Origin: Minisyncoccota bacterium
GTDB lineage: Bacteria > Patescibacteriota > Minisyncoccia > JAHIHE01 > JAGLIN01
DNA: 63,358 nt
Assembly: GCA_023137595.1 (NCBI GenBank)
Contig: JAGLOZ010000002.1
Coordinates: 1 to 63,358, forward strand
Direction: 5' to 3'
Positions 16,262 to 63,358 of the stretch are shown here, piece after piece; the stretch's first letter is position 1, and the number at the start of each line of letters is the position of its first letter. The notes below the pieces were generated by a model. It searched no databases, was not told the DNA's origin, and saw only the letters and a list, made by a program, of their open reading frames with translations. The translations under genes and the position numbers were made by a program.

Positions 16262-16416
16262 AAATTCCGGATCATACACGATTTAACCTATTTAATAATT
16301 AGAACTTTCTTGTTTTTGTCATTCTGAACTTGTTTCAGAATGACAGGTTTTTAAGAATAGTGAAATAGAGCGAAAAAAATTAAACTAGGGTTAAATTGCG
16401 CATGATCCGAAATTCC
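16262..16416. mobile_element. short MITE-like element (family A relative)
   Basis: About 29-bp terminal inverted repeats, aaattccggatcatacacgatttaaccta / tagggttaaattgcgcatgatccgaaattcc. The central hairpin is tgtcattctgaa-cttgtt-tcagaatgaca. Confidence 0.65.
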
Positions 16417-18243: not shown

Positions 18244-20214
18244 TTCCAAAACAGCTTTGATCCTTCTTACGCCAGCGCTTGAAGATTGTTCTTTCTTTAT
18301 TCTAAATTTTCCAAGCTCTGATGTGTTCTTGATGTGTGGACCACCGCAAATTTCTTTGCTGAAAATATCATCGTTTTTTCCAATGGTATAAACCTTCACC
18401 TTCTCTCCATATTTAGACTCAAACACTCCCATTGCGCCAATTTTTTTCGCTTCTTCCAAATTCATTTCCTCAAATGAAACCGGAAGCTTTTTTTGTATCT
18501 GCTCGCTCACCATTTCTTCAACTTTCTGTTTTTCTTCATCGGTCAATTTGTCGGCATGAGAATAATCAAATCTCAACCTTTCAGCAGTGATATTGCTCCC
18601 TTTTTGAAATACATGCTCGCCAAGAACTCTTCTTAATGATTCTAATAATAAATGCGCCGCCGTATGCAACCTTGTCGTTTCTTCACTCGCGTCCGCAAGC
18701 CCGCCCTTAAATTTCCCAGCTGAGGCTGTACGGGAGAGGGTTTGGTGTTTTTTGAACTCCTCGTTAAATTGTTTTTTAGTTTCTTCTAAATTAATCGGAT
18801 TACTTTTTTCTTTTACTAATTCAATGGTCATTTCTAGCGGGAGTCCAAAAGTAGAAAAAAAATAAAAAACATCCTCGCCACTTATAAATATATCATCTAT
18901 ATTACTCAGTCCTGCTTCTAAATTTCTTTGCTTATATAAATTTATCATCTCCTCAAATTCCTTCAACCCTTTTTTTATTGTCTTTTCAAACTTCTCCTCT
19001 TCCTTTTTGATCTCATCTAAGATTTTATCTTTATTATTCTCCAATTCAGGATAAAATTCTTTATAAATCTCTATCACAGTTTCAGCTAGCGGAAATAAAA
19101 ATCCATTTGGCATTTTCAACAAATTTCCATGCCTGATTGCGCGCCTTAACAATCTTCTCAAAATATATCCCCTATCTAAATTTGAAGGAAAAACTCCGTC
19201 TGAGATCATAAAGACTGAAGTTCTGATATGATCGGCAATAATTTTGATTGATTTTGTTTCCACATTGTCATTCTGAGCCGTAGGCGAAAGAATCCCGTCA
19301 TCAGACTCCTTGCATGTAGTTACGGGATTGCTTCGGGCTTCGCCCTCGCAATGACAATGTGACAAAGTCTTGACTTGAGCTACGATTGGAGCCAGTACAT
19401 CCGTTTCATAAACATTATCAAAGTCATTCAAAATAGCCAGAGTTCTCTCCATTCCCATCCCGGTATCAACGTTTTTTTGTCTTGATAAAACATATTTTCC
19501 TTCAGCCGTTTTATAATATTCCATAAATACATTATTCCAAATTTCAATATACCTTCCGCAATTGCATCCCGGTCTACAATTCTCAGCGTTAGGACAACTC
19601 TCAAAATTTACAGACTTTCCCAAGTCAATAAAAATCTCCGTATCAGGTCCGCACGGACCGGTCAATCCTGCCGGACCCCACCAATTATCCTCTTTTGGAA
19701 GAGGAAAGATCCTCGCATCTTCATTATTCTTTTTTTCTTTATCAAAAACTTCTGCGCTAACTCCAAGCTTTTCAAAACATTCTTGCCAGACCTTGACTGA
19801 CTCTTTGTCGCGCGGAGCGTCAACATCTCCCTCAAAAACCGTAACCTTGATCTTTTCTGGATCAATTCCAAGCCATTTTTCATCCGTTAGAAACTCCCAG
19901 CTCCAACGAATTGAATCATCTTTGAAATAATCTCCCAAAGACCAATTTCCAAGCATCTCAAAAAAAGTATTATGAGTGCTGTCGCCAACATCATCAATAT
20001 CCCCCGTCCTAACGCATTTTTGCACACTCACAAGCCTCTTTCCTTCGGAGTGCAATTCACCAAGCAAATATGGCACCAAAGGATGCATTCCGGCAGTCGT
20101 GAAAAGAACAGTCGGATCATTTTCCGGTACAAGCGAAGCCGAAGGAATCTCGCTATGTCCTCTTTCTTTAAAAAATTCAATATACTTTTTCCGCAATTCT
20201 TTGGAAGTGATCAT
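18241..20214 (-). CDS. alaS: alanyl-tRNA synthetase, short form (657 aa), carrying an in-frame repeat insertion
   Basis: FTTAGMHP, WNNVFMEY, DTGMGMER and HTAAHLL motifs. It lacks the usual C-terminal extension. Confidence 0.9.
   Translation of the reverse strand: MITSKELRKKYIEFFKERGHSEIPSASLVPENDPTVLFTTAGMHPLVPYLLGELHSEGKRLVSVQKCVRTGDIDDVGDSTHNTFFEMLGNWSLGDYFKDDSIRWSWEFLTDEKWLGIDPEKIKVTVFEGDVDAPRDKESVKVWQECFEKLGVSAEVFDKEKKNNEDARIFPLPKEDNWWGPAGLTGPCGPDTEIFIDLGKSVNFESCPNAENCRPGCNCGRYIEIWNNVFMEYYKTAEGKYVLSRQKNVDTGMGMERTLAILNDFDNVYETDVLAPIVAQVKTLSHCHCEGEARSNPVTTCKESDDGILSPTAQNDNVETKSIKIIADHIRTSVFMISDGVFPSNLDRGYILRRLLRRAIRHGNLLKMPNGFLFPLAETVIEIYKEFYPELENNKDKILDEIKKEEEKFEKTIKKGLKEFEEMINLYKQRNLEAGLSNIDDIFISGEDVFYFFSTFGLPLEMTIELVKEKSNPINLEETKKQFNEEFKKHQTLSRTASAGKFKGGLADASEETTRLHTAAHLLLESLRRVLGEHVFQKGSNITAERLRFDYSHADKLTDEEKQKVEEMVSEQIQKKLPVSFEEMNLEEAKKIGAMGVFESKYGEKVKVYTIGKNDDIFSKEICGGPHIKNTSELGKFRIKKEQSSSAGVRRIKAVLE
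19261..19361. repeat. palindromic repeat family C, copy embedded in frame in alaS
   Basis: Terminal inverted repeats (TIRs) CACATTGTCATTCTGAG / CTCGCAATGACAATGTG. The interior also pairs: aggcgaaagaatcccgt / acgggattgcttcg. Same tgtcattgcgag...cgaagcaatc family as 48395-48534. It translates as SHCHCEGEARSNPVTTCKESDDGILSPTAQNDNV. Confidence 0.8.
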
Positions 20215-25095: not shown

Positions 25096-26988
25096 TTAGT
25101 TCATAATTCTATCTCCAAAATACCAATCCAGCACCTCTTTTGCCACAGGAACCGCCGCCGCATGCCCTTCTCCTCCTCCTTCGATTATTACTGCCAGAGC
25201 GATCTCTGGATCATCATAAGGAGCATACGCGATATACCAAGCGTGTGTTTTTTGATTTCCGAAATATTGCGCGGTTCCTGTTTTACCGGCAACTTCTATC
25301 GGCAGATTACGCAGCGCTATTCCCGAACCGGATATAACATTTTCCCTCATTCCTTTCTGAACCCACTTTATATTCTCCAAATCCACAAAACCCTCTTTTA
25401 TTATCTTTGGATCTATATCTTCAATTATCTTGCCGTCAGAATCTATGATTTTATCAACTATTTGCGGCTGGAATAATTTTCCTCCATTTGCGATCACGGC
25501 GGTATAATTTGCGATCTGAAGAGGAGTTGCTAGAACATCTCCTTGCCCTATGGAAACATGATAGGTATCGCCTATATACCATTTTTCATTTTTCGTCTCT
25601 TCTTTCCATTTCTTATCAGGAGTAAGTCCTTTTATTTCTCCCGGTATGTCAATTCCTGAAATATTTCCAAGTCCGAAAAGATTTGCATATTTTTTTATCC
25701 TATCAATCCCCAATCCTTCTATATTTCCATGCCCTCCGCCCACTGTATAAAAATATACATTACAAGATTGCGCAATAGCCTTTTTTAGGTCAACCAAACC
25801 GTGCACTTTCCAATCTGGATAACTGTACGAACCGACATATATCGCTCCGCTAGCGAATATTTTGCGCTGAGGACTTATAATTCCTTCTTGCAGAGCCGCT
25901 ACTCCTATCAAGGGCTTAAAGGTTGACCCGGGCGGATATTGTCCGGCAATCGCTTTATTCAGAAGAGGGTTGGTCTTGTCAGCAAGCAATTTGTTATAAT
26001 CGTCGCTACTTATTCCTTTTGCGAATAAATTGTTATCGTAAGAAGGAAAATTAACAAGAGCAAGAACTGCGCCATTTTTTGGATTAATCGCAACAACAGA
26101 TGCTCCCGCTTCAGTTTCCAACCTTTCTATTATCTTCTCTAATTCGTCGTATATTTTTTTCTGTAGTTCTATATCTACATTTAAAATTAAATTATTACCG
26201 GAAACAGGAGCTTCTTTATTTATTGTTCTTGTCTTTTCTCCAAAAGAATCTACTTCAATTTCTTCTTTGCCATATTCTCCTCTGAGCTGTTTCTCGTAAA
26301 AAAGTTCAAGTCCATCTTTCCCTATTGTATCCGTTAAAAGATAGCCAGAATTAACATTCAATTCTTTTTCGTTTATTCTTCCGCTATAGCCTATAATATT
26401 TGAAATATATTTACTATCAATATAATTCCGTATAGCGTTTTTTTCCAGTTTAACTCCGTCTATTTTTTTTATTTCTTCCTCCAATATCAACGCCTCATCT
26501 TTTTCTATATTTTCCAAAATTAAAAAAGATTGATGCGAAAATCTATCCGCTTTATTGATTTTCTCCGTTAAGTCGTCTTCTTTCATTTCAATTATCAGAG
26601 AAAGTTTTTTTATCTTTTCTTTGATTCTATCTTTATCTTTTAGAAAATCATACGGAATAATTACAAGATCAAAAATAGGCACATTAAAAACAATTTGCTT
26701 ATTATTTCGATCATAAATTATTCCTCTTGGAGATTTTACAGCAACAACTCTTTTGTAATTGTTTTCTGAAATCTCCGTATAATGTCCGCCTTTTATTATC
26801 TGCAAATAAGCTGATTGAAGAACAAGCGCTAAAAGAACGAGGAAAAATAATTTCTTAACTGTTTTTATGTTTTTAACGCCCAGAGGGATCTCTAAATTAC
26901 TATCTTTTCTTGCTACAGAATCCAAAAAAAACTCTTCCAGCTCAAGAGATTCTTTATTCTTATTTTTTATAAAATGTTTATTTTTCAT
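25096..26988 (-). CDS. mrdA: penicillin-binding protein 2 (elongasome transpeptidase)
   Basis: PGSTFKP, SCNVYF and KTGTA motifs. Lies downstream of mreBCD. Confidence 0.85.
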   Translation of the reverse strand: MKNKHFIKNKNKESLELEEFFLDSVARKDSNLEIPLGVKNIKTVKKLFFLVLLALVLQSAYLQIIKGGHYTEISENNYKRVVAVKSPRGIIYDRNNKQIVFNVPIFDLVIIPYDFLKDKDRIKEKIKKLSLIIEMKEDDLTEKINKADRFSHQSFLILENIEKDEALILEEEIKKIDGVKLEKNAIRNYIDSKYISNIIGYSGRINEKELNVNSGYLLTDTIGKDGLELFYEKQLRGEYGKEEIEVDSFGEKTRTINKEAPVSGNNLILNVDIELQKKIYDELEKIIERLETEAGASVVAINPKNGAVLALVNFPSYDNNLFAKGISSDDYNKLLADKTNPLLNKAIAGQYPPGSTFKPLIGVAALQEGIISPQRKIFASGAIYVGSYSYPDWKVHGLVDLKKAIAQSCNVYFYTVGGGHGNIEGLGIDRIKKYANLFGLGNISGIDIPGEIKGLTPDKKWKEETKNEKWYIGDTYHVSIGQGDVLATPLQIANYTAVIANGGKLFQPQIVDKIIDSDGKIIEDIDPKIIKEGFVDLENIKWVQKGMRENVISGSGIALRNLPIEVAGKTGTAQYFGNQKTHAWYIAYAPYDDPEIALAVIIEGGGEGHAAAVPVAKEVLDWYFGDRIMN

Positions 26989-27000
26989 TTACTTAAGATT

Positions 27001-27306
27001 ATGCGAAATTTAACCCTAACATAACTTCTTCACTTTAACTCGCCTGCAAAAATTTGTCATCCTGAATTTATTTCAGGATCTTTGTTGTTTTAGGTTTTAA
27101 CTTATTACTATTCAACACTATACTTTCATCTACAATACAAATACAATTATCTTTCTATAATAACACAACCATTGTATTTTTAATTTATTCAAGAGTTCTG
27201 TGATTTATGGATTTTATTAAATGTAAAAGAAAATAGATCCTGAAACAAATTCAGGATGACAAACAGCAAAAGTTTTTGTTATTGATACATAGTTAAATTG
27301 CACATA
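27001..27306. mobile_element. MITE-like element, family A
   Basis: Inner TIRs tgtcatcctgaatttatttcaggatc / gatcctgaaacaaattcaggatgaca (27055-27261). Outer TIRs atgcgaaatttaaccct / tagttaaattgcacat. The conserved interior is aacactatactttcat.tacaa...tgatttatgga. Confidence 0.75.
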
Positions 27307-27311
27307 AGACG

Positions 27312-27815
27312 CTAATTACAAGTCTTGCGAGAAAGAATGTGAGCCAGAGGATAAATTAAAATTACTGTATAAATTATCTGAAAAACAATTATAAGCAAAA
27401 ATTGTTTTAAATTGAAAAAAATTTGCCCAAAATCACCAATACTAATTAAAAAAATGTATGTGGTATTATAAATCAAGATAGCTAAAGAAGCTACCAAGAA
27501 TAAATTATATGAAAACAGTTCTTTGAGAAAATAATAATTCAAGTATGACGAAATAAAGATCGTAAAAAGAATACTGATAATGATCAGGCCGAAATAATTT
27601 CCTGAAAATATATCCAAAACGAATCCAGTTACAAAAGCGGCATAAAATATATTTATAGATCTATTATCTAGCGCTGAAACAGCCAGCAATAATGCAAGAA
27701 CAATATTCGGAATATAATTGTCAAAAAAAAGTTGCGGGATAAAAGTAACTTGCAAAAATAAAAACACAAGAAAAAGCGATATAAATGTCCAATTTTTTAT
27801 TTTTCCGTTGATCAT
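27312..27815 (-). CDS. mreD: rod shape-determining protein MreD
   Basis: Five-TM small protein positioned between mreC and mrdA. Confidence 0.7.
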   Translation of the reverse strand: MINGKIKNWTFISLFLVFLFLQVTFIPQLFFDNYIPNIVLALLLAVSALDNRSINIFYAAFVTGFVLDIFSGNYFGLIIISILFTIFISSYLNYYFLKELFSYNLFLVASLAILIYNTTYIFLISIGDFGQIFFNLKQFLLIIVFQIIYTVILIYPLAHILSRKTCN

Positions 27816-41394: not shown

Positions 41395-41859
41395 TGTCAT
41401 TCTGAACTTGTTTCAGAATCTTTTACATGTTAGGTTTTAATTTTCGCTATTTAACGCCATATTTTCATTTACAGTAATTCTAGGTTTTCTTGATTAGTTT
41501 TCATTTGTTTGAGCTAGATTTTAAAAATAAATTTGGTCTTTGATATATACATGAAATACAAGCAGACATCGTGCAAACTGGAGTCCTCGCGAGAGCGAGG
41601 ATGAAATTTCGCAAGATTATTGAATTTCAAAAGAAATATGATATTTCTCCCTGACTGGAATTTATGAATTCAGTTCAGTATCGGGACTTCTTAGTATTAA
41701 AATTCCTTAATAATAATCTATTTTTAATTACAAACAACCGTTTCATCCTAAGCTTGTTTCAATATTTTCGCTGATTTCACGTAATACTATCTAAATGTAA
41801 AATACCGTAGATTCTGAAACAAAGCCTGTGCTGAATTTAGTTCAGTATTCAGAATGACA
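41395..41859. mobile_element. MITE-like element family A with a nested family B insertion
   Basis: Ends tgtcattctgaacttgtttcagaatc / ttcagtattcagaatgaca. The interior has ctatttaacgccatattttcatttacag. A family B copy lies at 41559-41709. Confidence 0.7.
41559..41709. repeat. intergenic repeat family B, nested inside the family A element
   Basis: cagacatcgtgcaaactggagtcctcgcgagagcgagg...gaatttcaaaagaaatatgatatttctccctgact...aaaattcctta. Confidence 0.7.
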
Positions 41860-44482: not shown

Positions 44483-44687
44483 TGTCATCCTGAATCCATT
44501 CGACTACCGCTCAGAACAAGCTTATTTCAGGATCTTTTGTAATTTAGGTCTGATCTATTCTATTTAACACTATACTTTCATTTACAACGCACACACAGAT
44601 TATATTAATTTATTCAAACGCTTTGATAATTTATGGATTTGATTAGATGTAAGAGAAAATAGATTCTGAACTAAATTCAGAATGACA
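44483..44687. mobile_element. MITE-like element, family A
   Basis: tgtcatcctgaatccattcgactaccgctcagaacaagcttatttcaggatc ... agattctgaactaaattcagaatgaca. The conserved interior is aacactatactttcatttacaacgca... Confidence 0.75.
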
Positions 44688-46508: not shown

Positions 46509-46688
46509 TGTCATCCTAAACTTGTTCCAGAATCTTTTGACTGCATGGACCAGCCTCTATCCAACACTGACCTTTTGCATACAATGTAGCCAATGTTTGG
46601 ATGATTTATGGCTTATGACCAACGTAATATACAGTGGATTCTGAAATAAGCTTGTTCTGAGCGGTAGTCAAATGGATTCAGAATGACA
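46509..46688. mobile_element. MITE-like element, family A
   Basis: tgtcatcctaaacttgttccagaatc ... ggattctgaaataagcttgttctgagcggtagtcaaatggattcagaatgaca. Confidence 0.7.
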
Positions 46689-49515: not shown

Positions 49516-49640
49516 TTTTTATGTGATTATAGTTGTTTATAAATTTCTGATTTTTAAAACAGCCCTTCAGAGGCTATTTATTCATTTTCAAGTTACAACT
49601 TCATAATACAAGTATTTTTAGATTTAGTCAATAGCCAGCT

Positions 49641-49677
49641 AGGTTTGTAGCTTCTTAGGTTTGTAGCTTCTTAGGTT
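49641..49677. repeat. 2.3 x 16-bp tandem repeat aggtttgtagcttctt
   Basis: Gene-sense CCTAAGAAGCTACAAA x2, immediately upstream of the TTGACT-17-TATTAT promoter of secE. Confidence 0.8.
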
Positions 49678-49733
49678 AGCTGATTTTGTACTATTATTTA
49701 AACATTACCCCGAGACAGACATTAAATTTTTCT

Positions 49734-54589: not shown

Positions 54590-54823
54590 TGTCGTTCTAA
54601 GCGTCGTTCTGAACCTGTCTGCTGATAGGCAGGCTTGTTTCAGAATCATTATTATTTTAGGTCTGATTTATACTATATTAACACCACACTTTCATTTACA
54701 GCGCAAACACAATTATTTTTTATAATACAGCTATTGTATTATAAATTCGTTCAAAAGTTTAGTGATTTATAGGTTTGATCAAATGCAAAATACAATAGAT
54801 TCTGAACTGAATTCAGAATGACA
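54590..54823. mobile_element. MITE-like element, family A
   Basis: gtcgttctgaacctgtctgctgataggcaggcttgtttcagaatc ... agattctgaactgaattcagaatgaca. The conserved interior is aacaccacactttcatttacagcgca. Confidence 0.75.
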
Positions 54824-60942: not shown

Positions 60943-61009
60943 ATATTTAGATTATTAGGTTGTTAGATTATTAGGCTTGCTAGAACTTTAAATTATCAGG
61001 ATATATTGA

Positions 61010-61236
61010 TGTCATTCTGAATCCATTCAGTAAACCCAGGACAAGCTTAGTTCAGAATCTATTATGTATTAGATTTCAATCTATCCTGTTTATATTAACT
61101 TTCACCTAAACTATAAATACAACTATTTCTTGTATGAATATTGTAATTGTGTTTTCGTTCCAATCAAAATGTTTGATGATTTATTGAATAAATTAGTGTA
61201 ATAATTGAAAGATTCTGAACTAAATTCAGAATGACA
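61010..61236. mobile_element. MITE-like element, family A
   Basis: tgtcattctgaatccattcagtaaacccaggacaagcttagttcagaatc ... agattctgaactaaattcagaatgaca. Confidence 0.75.
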
Positions 61237-61301
61237 CCTACGCATCAACCTATGAATAACTCAGCAAATCCTGGTTTCTTGTCCCTAATTAAATTAATTT
61301 T

Positions 61302-61532
61302 TCATTCCCGACGCCAGTTTTTTAATTGTTTTTCTCTCCTGATAGCGGAATTTATATCATTCGTCGTTTCATAATAAACTAATTTGTTAACTTTGTATTT
61401 TTGAGAGAAGCCCTCTACTAGACTATCTTTGTGCTCGTACATTCTTTTTGGCAAATTACTAGTTACTCCAACATACAAAACATTATCATTAACATTCGTT
61501 GAGATATAAATATAGTATATTTTATTTTCCAT
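61302..61532 (-). CDS. GIY-YIG nuclease superfamily protein (UPF0213-like)
   Basis: YYIYISTNVNDNVLYVGVTSNLPKRMYEHK. Confidence 0.8.
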   Translation of the reverse strand: MENKIYYIYISTNVNDNVLYVGVTSNLPKRMYEHKDSLVEGFSQKYKVNKLVYYETTNDINSAIRREKQLKNWRRE

Positions 61533-61593
61533 AATTTTAAACCTAATTCCTAACCCACTAAGGGCTAATCCCTAATTCCTAATTCCTAACCCA

Positions 61594-63096
61594 CTAGCAT
61601 CTCTTCGTCTTCTTCAACATTATCAAAAACACAAACGCGATCATAAACAAAACAAAGCATATAAATCCAGCTTCCGCAATTTGTTCTTTTTCAACTAGAT
61701 CAACTATTAGAACCGAGATGGTTTTTACGTCATTACTCACAGCCAGCGTTGCTCCGGTTTCCGACAAGCTTCTCATAAAAGCCATAATGCTCCCGGCAAT
61801 TATGGCGGGCAGGATCAAGGGAAAGAGAATTGATGTCAAAACTTTGCTTGAATTCGCGCCAAGACATAAGGCCGATTCTTCTATCTTAAAATCAACATTT
61901 TTTATCGCCGCGACAACAGGCTTTACAAGAAGCGGAAAAGTAAAGCTCAAGTGAGCAAAAATAAGAATCAACAATTCATTAAAGTGCAGTCTCCCCCAAA
62001 ACATAGCAAGTGAAAATCCCAGCGCGCTGGTCGGCACCAAAAGAACAATGTCATGCATGCTTTCAAACAGATTCGCCAGTTTTATATTTTTGCTTCGCGC
62101 GATAAAATATGCCATAGGAATCGCAAAAATAAGCCCGATTAGCGTTACCGAAAAAGCGATTCCAAAAGAAATAACGAAACTTTCTAAGATCTGCGCGTTA
62201 AAAACAGGATTAAAATTCAAAAAATTATAAAAAATAATATAAAAAGTCGGAATTATTATAATGATCGCAAGAAACGATCCGAGAATAAGATTTCTAATTT
62301 TGTGCAAATCACTTAACGATCTTTCAAGTTTTGGATAAGCGACTTCAAAATTAAAATGTTTCTTTCTTGTTAAAAATTTTGCAAACACAAGCACGAAGAG
62401 GGCTGACAAAATAAGAATGATACTGGCAATCGCTGCCTCGGGAATATCTCCAGAATGCTTTAGATTAACAATAAATACTGGAGCGGTCATTGTCGCAGCA
62501 CTTGCAACCATCATCGTTGCTCCGGTTTCCGACAAGCTTCTTGTAAAAGTAAGAACTGCTCCGACAACAACTCCGTCTTTGAACAAAGGAAGATCAATCG
62601 TTCGAAATAAACTGAAAGAAGACGCGCCAAGCGTTGTGCCAGCCTCGTTATAAGTTTTGTTGATCTGTTCAATTGAGGCCACAACTGAGCGAACCATATA
62701 AGGAATCGTAAAAATAATATGAAGTAAAATTATAAGAACTAATCCCCTGCCAATATGCCAAAACTCTCCCCAAAACAAGAATACTGAAAGCCCGAGAGCC
62801 GCTGTCGGAACAATCAGAGGTAGGTCAATAAGATTGTCCATCCACGCTTTATATTTGCTTTTTGTATTGACGAAAACCCACGCAAAAGCAATTCCAAAAA
62901 ACAAATTAACGCTCGTCACTATAAAAGCCACCAAAAAAGAAATTTTCAATACACCGAAAAGCTCGCTTGAAACAGTAAGCTTTCCGCCGAAAGCAAAACT
63001 AAGGACATATACCGCTGGCAAAAAAATAACGGTAATAAAAAACAAGAATGTCGCGAAATAGATTAGATGTAAAAAATATTTTTTATAACTGAACAT
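61594..63096 (-). CDS. ABC importer permease, duplicated two-domain form (FbpB/ThiP-like)
   Basis: About 12 TM helices. Two copies of the SLSETGAT(M/L) EAA-loop motif. Confidence 0.8.
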   Translation of the reverse strand: MFSYKKYFLHLIYFATFLFFITVIFLPAVYVLSFAFGGKLTVSSELFGVLKISFLVAFIVTSVNLFFGIAFAWVFVNTKSKYKAWMDNLIDLPLIVPTAALGLSVFLFWGEFWHIGRGLVLIILLHIIFTIPYMVRSVVASIEQINKTYNEAGTTLGASSFSLFRTIDLPLFKDGVVVGAVLTFTRSLSETGATMMVASAATMTAPVFIVNLKHSGDIPEAAIASIILILSALFVLVFAKFLTRKKHFNFEVAYPKLERSLSDLHKIRNLILGSFLAIIIIIPTFYIIFYNFLNFNPVFNAQILESFVISFGIAFSVTLIGLIFAIPMAYFIARSKNIKLANLFESMHDIVLLVPTSALGFSLAMFWGRLHFNELLILIFAHLSFTFPLLVKPVVAAIKNVDFKIEESALCLGANSSKVLTSILFPLILPAIIAGSIMAFMRSLSETGATLAVSNDVKTISVLIVDLVEKEQIAEAGFICFVLFMIAFVFLIMLKKTKRC

Positions 63097-63358
63097 GATT
63101 TAGGTTTTTAGGTTGTAGCTTCTTAGCTTCTTAGGGTTCTAGGACTTGTTAAAATATATTGATATTATCCCGATTCGCCAACTGACGAAGAATTGTCATC
63201 TCAAAGGAGGTGCGACTAAGAGATCTAAGAGTTAAACAAAGTTCACTTTAACTTTTCTTATTTCTAGCATAGTATAGTTTCCAGACCTCTCATACGTTTT
63301 TAGATAAATGCAACTATAAAACTCAAAATTAACAAATATAGTGTATTTTACAACGGCC

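Follow-up and report, generated by a model that had tools for sequence, protein, structure and literature searches.

Family A repeats in a small Patescibacteria-like genome are dimers of CGTC-REP/Ssn-related hairpins and share spacer sequence with the leader of a GIY-YIG nuclease gene

The window, by which we mean the whole 63,358-nucleotide stretch of DNA that was analysed, is contig C17 of a Patescibacteria-like genome of 1.106 Mb (104 contigs, G+C content 33.8%), which also encodes a short AlaRS, an archaeal-type thymidylate synthase fusion and a presenilin-like protease. It contains five full copies of a repeat designated family A, one composite element and one solo hairpin. These are given here together with a nuclease pseudogene and two further repeat structures.

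16317-16345, no strand assigned: solo 29-nt perfect palindrome made up of two tagged hairpins that overlap, within an outer inverted repeat (16262-16416)
19266-19356, plus strand: hairpin dimer of another, GC-richer subtype with TGTCAT...ATGACA ends, in frame within alaS (from the sequence and its translation)
27001-27020, plus strand: left arm, ATGCGAAATTTAACCCTAAC, of an outer inverted repeat unrelated to family A, with its partner arm at about 27289-27306
27055-27261, minus strand: full family A copy, 207 bp (nhmmer, 144.6 bits on the minus strand against 67.8 on the plus strand)
41395-41859, no strand assigned: composite element, 465 bp, with family A termini and a partial arm into which other repeats are inserted (nhmmer matches the ends only)
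44483-44687, minus strand: full family A copy, 205 bp, with a long-loop hairpin at 44483-44533 (nhmmer, 113.3 bits)
46509-46688, plus strand: divergent family A copy, 180 bp, upstream of rplA, with a long-loop hairpin at its right end (nhmmer, 57.8 bits)
54590-54823, minus strand: full family A copy, in whose left hairpin the tag is partly duplicated and the loop enlarged (nhmmer, 141.9 bits over 54603-54823)
61010-61236, minus strand: full family A copy, 227 bp, 8 nt downstream of the ssn pseudogene (nhmmer, 125.1 bits)
61245-61532, minus strand: ssn-like GIY-YIG nuclease pseudogene (tblastn, Pfam GIY-YIG)

The copy at 27055-27261 sits between mrdA, the PBP2 gene (25096-26988), and mreD (27312-27815), and is bounded by terminal hairpins at 27055-27080 and 27236-27261. 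The hairpin folds as single-stranded DNA at -6.2 kcal/mol (z = -4.8) and the whole element at -29.6 kcal/mol (z = -5.6). An earlier, sequence-only reading had taken 27001-27306 as one MITE-like element, but the segments 27001-27054 and 27262-27306 belong to the outer, different inverted repeat, whose motif ATGCGAAATTTAACCCTAAC has seven occurrences in the genome, five of them 28-41 nt outside an element bounded by the Ssn-related motif (SRM) described below. The termini proposed in that reading are present at all seven loci that it listed, and the interior blocks that it quoted are the best-conserved interior columns; two of the seven, however, are not simple copies, since 16262-16416 holds the solo hairpin only (its palindrome folds as single-stranded DNA at -11.3 kcal/mol, z = -6.1) and 41395-41859 is the composite, within which repeat families D3 and D19 lie. 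What had been described as a sub-module shuffled between copies is a long-loop variant, an extension of about 29 nt within the loop of the terminal hairpin, of which blastn-short finds about 18 cases genome-wide, nearly always at that place. The statement that the elements are always intergenic holds for 43 of the 44 full-length family A copies of the genome, whereas the related dimer of the other subtype at 19266-19356 is read in frame through alaS.

A family A unit has the layout TGTCATYCTGAA-N5-TTCAGRATC, a spacer of about 150 bp, and GATYCTGAA-N5-TTCAGRATGACA, with a length of about 200 bp. Using a profile built from 35 aligned copies, nhmmer recovered 44 full-length and 30 partial copies genome-wide, and the premise that the copies align significantly is thereby confirmed; from these counts the family is estimated to make up about 1% of the genome, with roughly one copy per 15 kb. 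In the 1.106-Mb genome there are 38 occurrences of the exact terminal 12-mer TGTCATTCTGAA and 36 of TTCAGAATGACA, against a chance estimate of about 0.1. Hairpins of the form GTCAT-stem-loop-stem-ATC number 97, compared with 1-8 in five Markov shuffles, an SRM-type enrichment over dinucleotide-level chance. Each of the tag letters T, G, T, C, A and T is found in 72-76 of 76 termini. Identity between copies is 83% in the termini and 64% on average in the interiors, where it reaches at most 85%. The two arms are imperfect inverted copies of each other (alignment score 19, shuffles 3.6 +/- 4.4), yet a copy can be assigned an orientation, since its two strands score differently, the better at about 145 bits and the other at about 65. 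One orientation is common to all family A copies of the window but one. A literature search with the terminal 12-mers returned unrelated primer matches only.

Conserved intergenic sequences of this kind could be immobile structures at fixed positions, whether regulatory elements, terminators or small RNA genes. Apart from their position, the strong predicted folding, the T-rich run that the consensus shows inward of each hairpin and the conserved interior blocks are in keeping with such a role, as is a copy identity of about 80% across genera whose mrdA DNA is 71% identical. The orthologous junctions, however, are empty in most sister genera. The mreD-mrdA junction is reduced to 0-24 nt in four of them (G007, G011, G005 and G002). 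At the site upstream of rplA, the flank alignments to G007 leave 1-2 nt in place of the stretch of about 210 nt that holds the element, and G011 has two tandem short relatives there; the deaminase/HIT site, which carries the 44483-44687 copy, is an intergenic gap of 4 nt in G018 and holds a solo hairpin in G007. Across 32 genomes of the order the number of hairpins varies from 0 to 71 each (the reversed-pattern control gives 0 in all), and the preferred length of the dimers differs genome by genome. Orientation relative to the flanking genes is without significant bias genome-wide (18 same, 10 opposite), the hairpins were not scored as terminator-like in a scan of the consensus, and no Rfam family matches in the window. 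A fixed structure is thus a highly improbable account of family A, and the proviso of the sequence-only reading, that the copies might prove to be conserved regulatory structures at orthologous positions in relatives, did not materialise.

The insertion polymorphism between relatives that the same reading had proposed to look for is found, as presence and absence at orthologous sites. The genome G009, which also has an intact ssn gene, has at least 15 copies, uniformly 205 bp long and at unrelated loci, with a mean identity of 87% and a maximum of 98%, and this homogeneity points to a fairly recent burst. When G009 is compared with the congeneric G017, one site is found empty and two others are occupied by a different hairpin-bounded element in the same place, a replacement that also speaks against fixed structures; the intergenic DNA of the two genomes is too diverged for base-exact insertion junctions. 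Taken together, the empty orthologous sites and the G009 copies indicate, on comparative sequence grounds, that family A elements move or are exchanged, by gain, loss and replacement. The copies of the present genome are old by the same measure (interior identity 64%, maximum 85%), so activity here may have ceased.

The designation MITE-like was apt insofar as family A is an abundant family of small, non-coding units bounded by inverted repeats. Classical MITEs are deletion derivatives of DDE-type insertion sequences, moved in trans by a transposase that recognises, in this case, 25-nt terminal inverted repeats (TIRs); the small size, intergenic position, high copy number and 25-nt terminal inverted repeats beginning with TGT are what this origin would give. 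Against it, the target-site duplications that had been suggested as a check were sought at 38 copies and found at none for k = 3-8 (0.0-1.4 expected) and at one for k = 2 (2.9 expected), and none was seen in the young G009 copies. The rve and DDE_Tnp_1 domains are absent from the whole genome, and none of the long elements bounded by these ends carries a transposase gene; the partner that does have the same ends encodes a GIY-YIG nuclease. Taken literally, the remark that there is no transposase was correct; the window does, however, contain a dedicated nuclease gene. Finally, each supposed TIR is itself a known Ssn-related hairpin. A classical MITE origin is accordingly very hard to sustain, and the label fits by analogy only. 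A 1.4-kb unit with family A ends (C97:766-2199) was considered as an autonomous transposon and set aside, its two ORFs being without a Pfam match.

The nature of the terminal hairpin is more informative. It measures 25 nt and consists of a TGTC tag on the outside, an 8-bp stem ATTCTGAA (ATYCTGAA/TTCAGRAT), a 5-nt loop and a conserved C right after the stem. CGTC-tagged REPs, as catalogued by Di Nocera, De Gregorio and Rocco (2013, BMC Genomics, PMC3733652), often have a TGTC tag, stems of 8-9 bp starting with AT and loops of 4-5 nt, and mostly form head-to-head dimers; the superfamily takes in the Neisseria dRS3 and the Rickettsia RPE-4/RPE-6 repeats, and no dedicated transposase was linked to it in any species. 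Family A hairpins have these properties, with the exception of the roughly 18 that carry the 29-nt loop extension. Head-to-head dimers with the tags outside predominate here as well (the 44 full copies), and both groups have conserved spacers and occasional intragenic copies that are read in frame. The spacer is usually 20-100 bp in the CGTC REPs (PMC3733652) and about 150 bp in this genome; in the relatives G021, G025 and G002 the hairpin starts are 42-180 bp apart, mostly 54-113 bp. The phylum of the host lies outside the five listed in that survey.

Chenal et al. (2025, Nat Commun, PMC11893778) showed that an extended form of the Neisseria motif, the NTS (CGTCATTCCCGCGMAVGCGGGAATCYRG), is bound as single-stranded DNA by SsnA. 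This GIY-YIG endonuclease has 94 aa and makes its cut a few nucleotides 5' of the motif. In both Neisseria and Wolbachia, Ssn binds the hairpin in single-stranded DNA only and nicks the strand a few nucleotides from the tag, on its 5' side; the ssn genes are typically flanked by the motif, an arrangement termed IS-like, and the system reduces transformation by motif-bearing DNA (PMC11893778). Activity on dsDNA or RNA is absent in that system, whose proteins are assigned through CDD cd10448 or through homology to the N. meningitidis SsnA (E < 1e-10). Placed side by side, the Neisseria NTS reads CGTCATTCCCGCG-MAV-GCGGGAATC and the family A hairpin TGTCATTCTGAA-CTTGT-TTCAGAATC. Both have the 5' (C/T)GTCAT tag, a palindrome of the type ATTC...GAAT and a C immediately 3' of the stem, and in both systems there are tens to hundreds of copies per genome. 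The published SRM pattern, HGTCWYN(0-2)YYVSBRHN(0-5)WNVSBRGN(0-2)RNCYNB, matched the NTS used as a control and did not match the consensus family A hairpins, because it demands G or C at stem positions that have A or T here (TCTGAA/CCTGAA); it has four matches in the genome, against 0-3 in shuffles. The assignment is therefore based on the printed NTS comparison and on the 2013 description of the family. By sequence, the termini of family A are TGTC-tagged REPs of the CGTC superfamily, and hence Ssn-related motifs, in an AT-rich version.

The exact hairpin is not confined to this lineage, being present in at least 119 loci of many phyla, which include Flavobacteriia, Dehalococcoidia, Gastranaerophilales, Treponema, Scalindua and Patescibacteria. 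A second hairpin usually lies 10-60 nt off in these loci; it keeps the TGTCAT and ATC signature and has a different, internally complementary stem. When the ORFs beside the hairpins of these loci were clustered, small GIY-YIG proteins were the only recurrent family directly against the hairpins, 12-20 nt away in several loci of different phyla, and locus L036 has the layout hairpin, ORF, hairpin.

Genes of this type were found in the present genome by tblastn with foreign GIY-YIG proteins. The only intact element-type copy found, on contig C59, stands at a contig end and encodes 95 aa with GIY-YIG as the sole above-threshold Pfam domain (E about 1e-16); a terminal hairpin lies 113 nt upstream and a half-hairpin, GATTCTGAA, 16 nt downstream, where the contig ends. 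By our own count, its residues Y10, Y21 and E68 each stand four positions beyond the catalytic Y6, Y17 and E64 of the published enzyme (offset +4), so that the spacing of the two tyrosines and the glutamate equals that of the Neisseria enzyme; the protein also weakly resembles UPF0213 (PDB 1zg2, E = 0.16). The copy in the window, 8 nt from the 61010-61236 element, has 64% identity to the C59 copy and matches Pfam GIY-YIG with E = 1.9e-16. Its ORF of 76 aa (61302-61532) ends at an in-frame TGA (61302-61304), beyond which 18 further codons continue in frame, and the TGA falls where the C59 copy and the copies of relatives read Trp (NWRRQW against NWRRE*). This single TGA is an ordinary stop in the genome, and the window copy is therefore called a pseudogene; recoding of TGA was considered and ruled out, given that TGA ends 62 of 475 long ORFs and that an RF2-like paralog is present. 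Degenerate or fragmentary further copies occur on contigs C29 and C9, the latter truncated by a different TGTCAT...ATGACA element.

The connection between this gene and family A extends beyond the hairpins. The leader of the C59 gene matches positions 1-100 of the family A profile (E = 4e-15), and the leader of an 85% identical gene in G014, preceded by the same hairpin, matches positions 2-123. G012, G032 and G025 contain complete units of hairpin, ssn and hairpin, about 360-380 bp long, in which, as with the single-domain C59 gene, the motif lies on both sides of ssn. The arrangement at 61010-61236, where a hairpin and an arm resembling family A come after ssn, recurs in G011 (locus L143). 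Among the 32 genomes compared within the order, 30 have genes resembling ssn, often as several intact copies. The correspondence is not complete: G003, with 49 hairpins, gives no more than a weak GIY-YIG match, and G004 and G008 have ssn but lack this hairpin type. From these sequence relations we infer that the partner of the family A hairpins is Ssn, a GIY-YIG endonuclease of about 95 aa that would act on single-stranded DNA. With the pseudogene 8 nt from one element, and with a family A hairpin and leader at the intact C59 gene, the description of family A as non-autonomous and without a partner proved wrong.

A different enzyme would be required if family A were a REP/REPIN-type element that depends for its movement on a RAYT-like tyrosine transposase of the Y1 (IS200/IS605) type, with its gene at another place in the genome. 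REPIN/RAYT systems (Bertels and Rainey 2011, PMC3116915) resemble family A in their inverted hairpin doublets, in the lack of target duplication and in a single-copy partner gene flanked by repeats. The genome does contain four to five Y1_Tnp genes (best score 62 bits, open frames of 185-193 aa), and the results above fit the mode of action of Y1 enzymes, which use single-strand hairpins as substrates and generate no duplication. The tag of the REPIN/RAYT repeats is GTAG, however, and that of family A TGTC, and their partner is a Y1 transposase in place of the GIY-YIG nuclease found here. The RAYT-like genes of this genome have GTAG REPs of their own: its Y1 genes are flanked by these or by other palindromes (GTAGggacaggtttgaaacctgtcc on contig C35), and none by TGTCAT hairpins. 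Neither the GTAG tag nor a Y1 gene flanked by the repeat is thus found for family A; the gene that does lie between these hairpins is ssn, and the CGTC REPs had no transposase linked to them in any species (PMC3733652). We consider movement by a Y1 enzyme unlikely, if somewhat less so than the MITE and fixed-structure accounts.

The explanation that we favour, with considerable confidence, is that family A elements are dimers of TGTC-REP hairpins with the tags outward, that their partner is Ssn, and that they are a non-coding, foldback-type relative of the ssn unit. The unit comprises, in this lineage, a hairpin, a leader, ssn and a second hairpin within 0.4-0.5 kb, and it is the terminal hairpin and the first 100 nt or so, common to both, that lead us to read family A in this way. 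Ssn would bind each terminal hairpin when the DNA is single-stranded. Since the tags of the two inverted hairpins point outward, either strand would present one hairpin in the orientation for cleavage and would receive a nick immediately beyond the element, on the 5' side of that strand; recognition and cleavage of the AT-rich hairpin by this particular Ssn would be part of the scheme. The nuclease may then drive or permit spread by way of single-stranded DNA, in a REP/RAYT-like manner or by break and repair; candidate routes are single-strand excision and insertion, break-induced copying, and exchange through transformation and recombination.

A similar system is that of the NIMEs (Neisseria intergenic mosaic elements), which Parkhill and colleagues reportedly described in 2000 as repeat units bracketed by dRS3 inverted repeats. 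Like family A, they are short intergenic units with the same type of hairpin inverted at both sides, and units are exchanged at one site; they form long arrays, whereas family A elements are mostly single, with a tandem pair in G011. The hairpins may, in addition, flag incoming single strands to be cut if the host is naturally competent, as they do in Neisseria. ComEC is present in the host genome and natural competence has been shown in Patescibacteria, and it is therefore plausible, by analogy, that incoming strands bearing the hairpin are cut in the same manner, a role that would be compatible with family A as a relative of the ssn unit.

A stronger version of the relation, in which the hairpin-ssn-hairpin unit is an autonomous mobile element driven by its GIY-YIG nuclease and family A is its non-coding passenger form, is possible, though we would sooner doubt than accept it. 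To our knowledge GIY-YIG nucleases are hydrolytic, and we know of none that carries out strand transfer or joins DNA, so that Ssn acting as a transposase would be without precedent. The common ends and leader, the lack of duplications, the G009 burst, the nested insertions in hairpin loops and the replacement of elements at the same site are all compatible with such a unit. If it exists, it would represent a route of transposition or homing without a described bacterial precedent, and it would supply the mobilising enzyme long missing for the whole CGTC REP superfamily, including the Neisseria dRS3 and Rickettsia RPE-4/RPE-6 repeats.

Family A thus belongs to a known kind, that of the CGTC REPs, or SRMs, and Ssn. 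The CGTC REPs stood without a dedicated enzyme in the 2013 catalogue (PMC3733652), and the hairpin was tied to Ssn only in 2025 (PMC11893778); for family A the link to ssn is explicit. Several points are new with respect to the published systems. The host is Patescibacteria-like, which places an Ssn/CGTC-REP system in tiny genomes of this type, at an estimated 1% of the DNA. The stem is AT-rich and missed by the published pattern and, as the same hairpin in many phyla escapes that pattern too, the family has probably been under-counted. The long-loop variant is a further difference from the Ssn/SRM systems described so far, as is the form of the elements, which are uniform dimers of about 200 bp whose spacer has sequence in common with the ssn leader. 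That the spacer of the dimers corresponds to the leader of the nuclease gene is direct evidence, at the level of sequence, for the IS-like relation that has been proposed for gene and repeat. The young and homogeneous burst in G009 offers material for tests of mobility, and, since Patescibacteria are naturally competent, a role of the hairpins and Ssn in the cutting of incoming single strands can be put to the test as well.

Around the hairpin-bounded elements of the 1.1-Mb source genome runs a second inverted-repeat motif, ATGCGCAATTTAACCCTA, for which five of the seven genomic occurrences lie 28-41 nt beyond the ends of such elements, so that family A copies and solo hairpins occupy the center of another palindrome. 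The sites of this outer motif are:

window 27001-27020 and 27289-27306, outer inverted-repeat motif
window 16268-16290 and 16386-16403, outer inverted-repeat motif
C8:4051, C10:24799 and C58:6459 (other contigs of the same genome), further sites of the motif

In the relative G009, the family A copy at locus L152 is likewise flanked by inverted sequences, and its congener G017 does not have those flanks. The outer inverted repeat may represent a preferred target or, alternatively, may belong to a larger composite element.

G009 and G017, which belong to a single genus, also differ at two orthologous intergenic sites in the hairpin-bounded element present there (L156 in G009 versus L173 in G017, and L161 versus L174, respectively). 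The TGTCAT...ATGACA ends are identical and the stems and spacers are not, a pattern that suggests cassette-like replacement at fixed sites. The nesting of subfamilies within one another is shown by contig C9 of the source genome (2400-2760), where another kind of TGTCAT...ATGACA element, its stems richer in GC, has removed the 3' end of a gene for the GIY-YIG single-strand DNA nuclease Ssn. The alaS gene contains, at window 19266-19356, a hairpin dimer of higher GC content that has the same type of ends and is translated in frame. The hairpins that delimit family A also bound a 1.4-kb segment at C97:766-2199, in which the inverted repeat reaches about 60 nt inward from both ends. This segment, which may be a cargo-carrying unit, encodes two ORFs of 262 and 134 aa, neither of which has a Pfam match, and the longer one contains a stretch that, judged by eye, is hydrophobic and membrane-like.

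The window ssn pseudogene is interrupted by one in-frame TGA (61302-61304), at a position where tryptophan is read in the intact copy on contig C59 and in the copies of relatives. A single in-frame TGA is likewise reported for ssn copies in two relatives (G011:C4:20361-20645 and G031:C17:23125-23397); the recurrence may be a coincidence, or the codon may act as a leaky stop that holds expression low. Several intergenic spacers, including the one directly upstream of this pseudogene, are occupied by short TTAGG-type tandem repeats (e.g. ggttaggaattaggaattagggattag):

window 61540-61595, TTAGG-type tandem repeats
window 60945-60975, TTAGG-type tandem repeats
window 49629-49691, TTAGG-type tandem repeats
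window 63113-63143, TTAGG-type tandem repeats

The source genome has further GIY-YIG mini-genes, belonging to another subtype, at C87:1752-2006, C60:6-251 and C16:15469-15690; two copies, about 85% similar, are located at contig ends, one is flanked by tRNA genes, and none of the flanks examined carried a marked TGTC hairpin. The same genome encodes four or five Y1 (IS200/RAYT-like) transposases:

C65:5945-6277, Y1 transposase gene
C75:8857-9078, Y1 transposase gene
C48:8335-8568, Y1 transposase gene
C35:106-270, Y1 transposase gene
C10:2581-2802, Y1 transposase gene

Since the flanks of these genes contain GTAG-tagged REPs or other palindromes, both REP superfamilies, the GTAG-tagged and the TGTC-tagged, are present together in one tiny genome.

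The window copy of family A at 27055-27261, between mreD and mrdA, is 76-82% identical to copies from other genera (G009 and G003), whereas the identity of mrdA DNA to that of G009 is only 71%. Because the elements are thus closer across genera than this housekeeping gene, the comparison hints at horizontal spread of family A or at constraint on its spacer.
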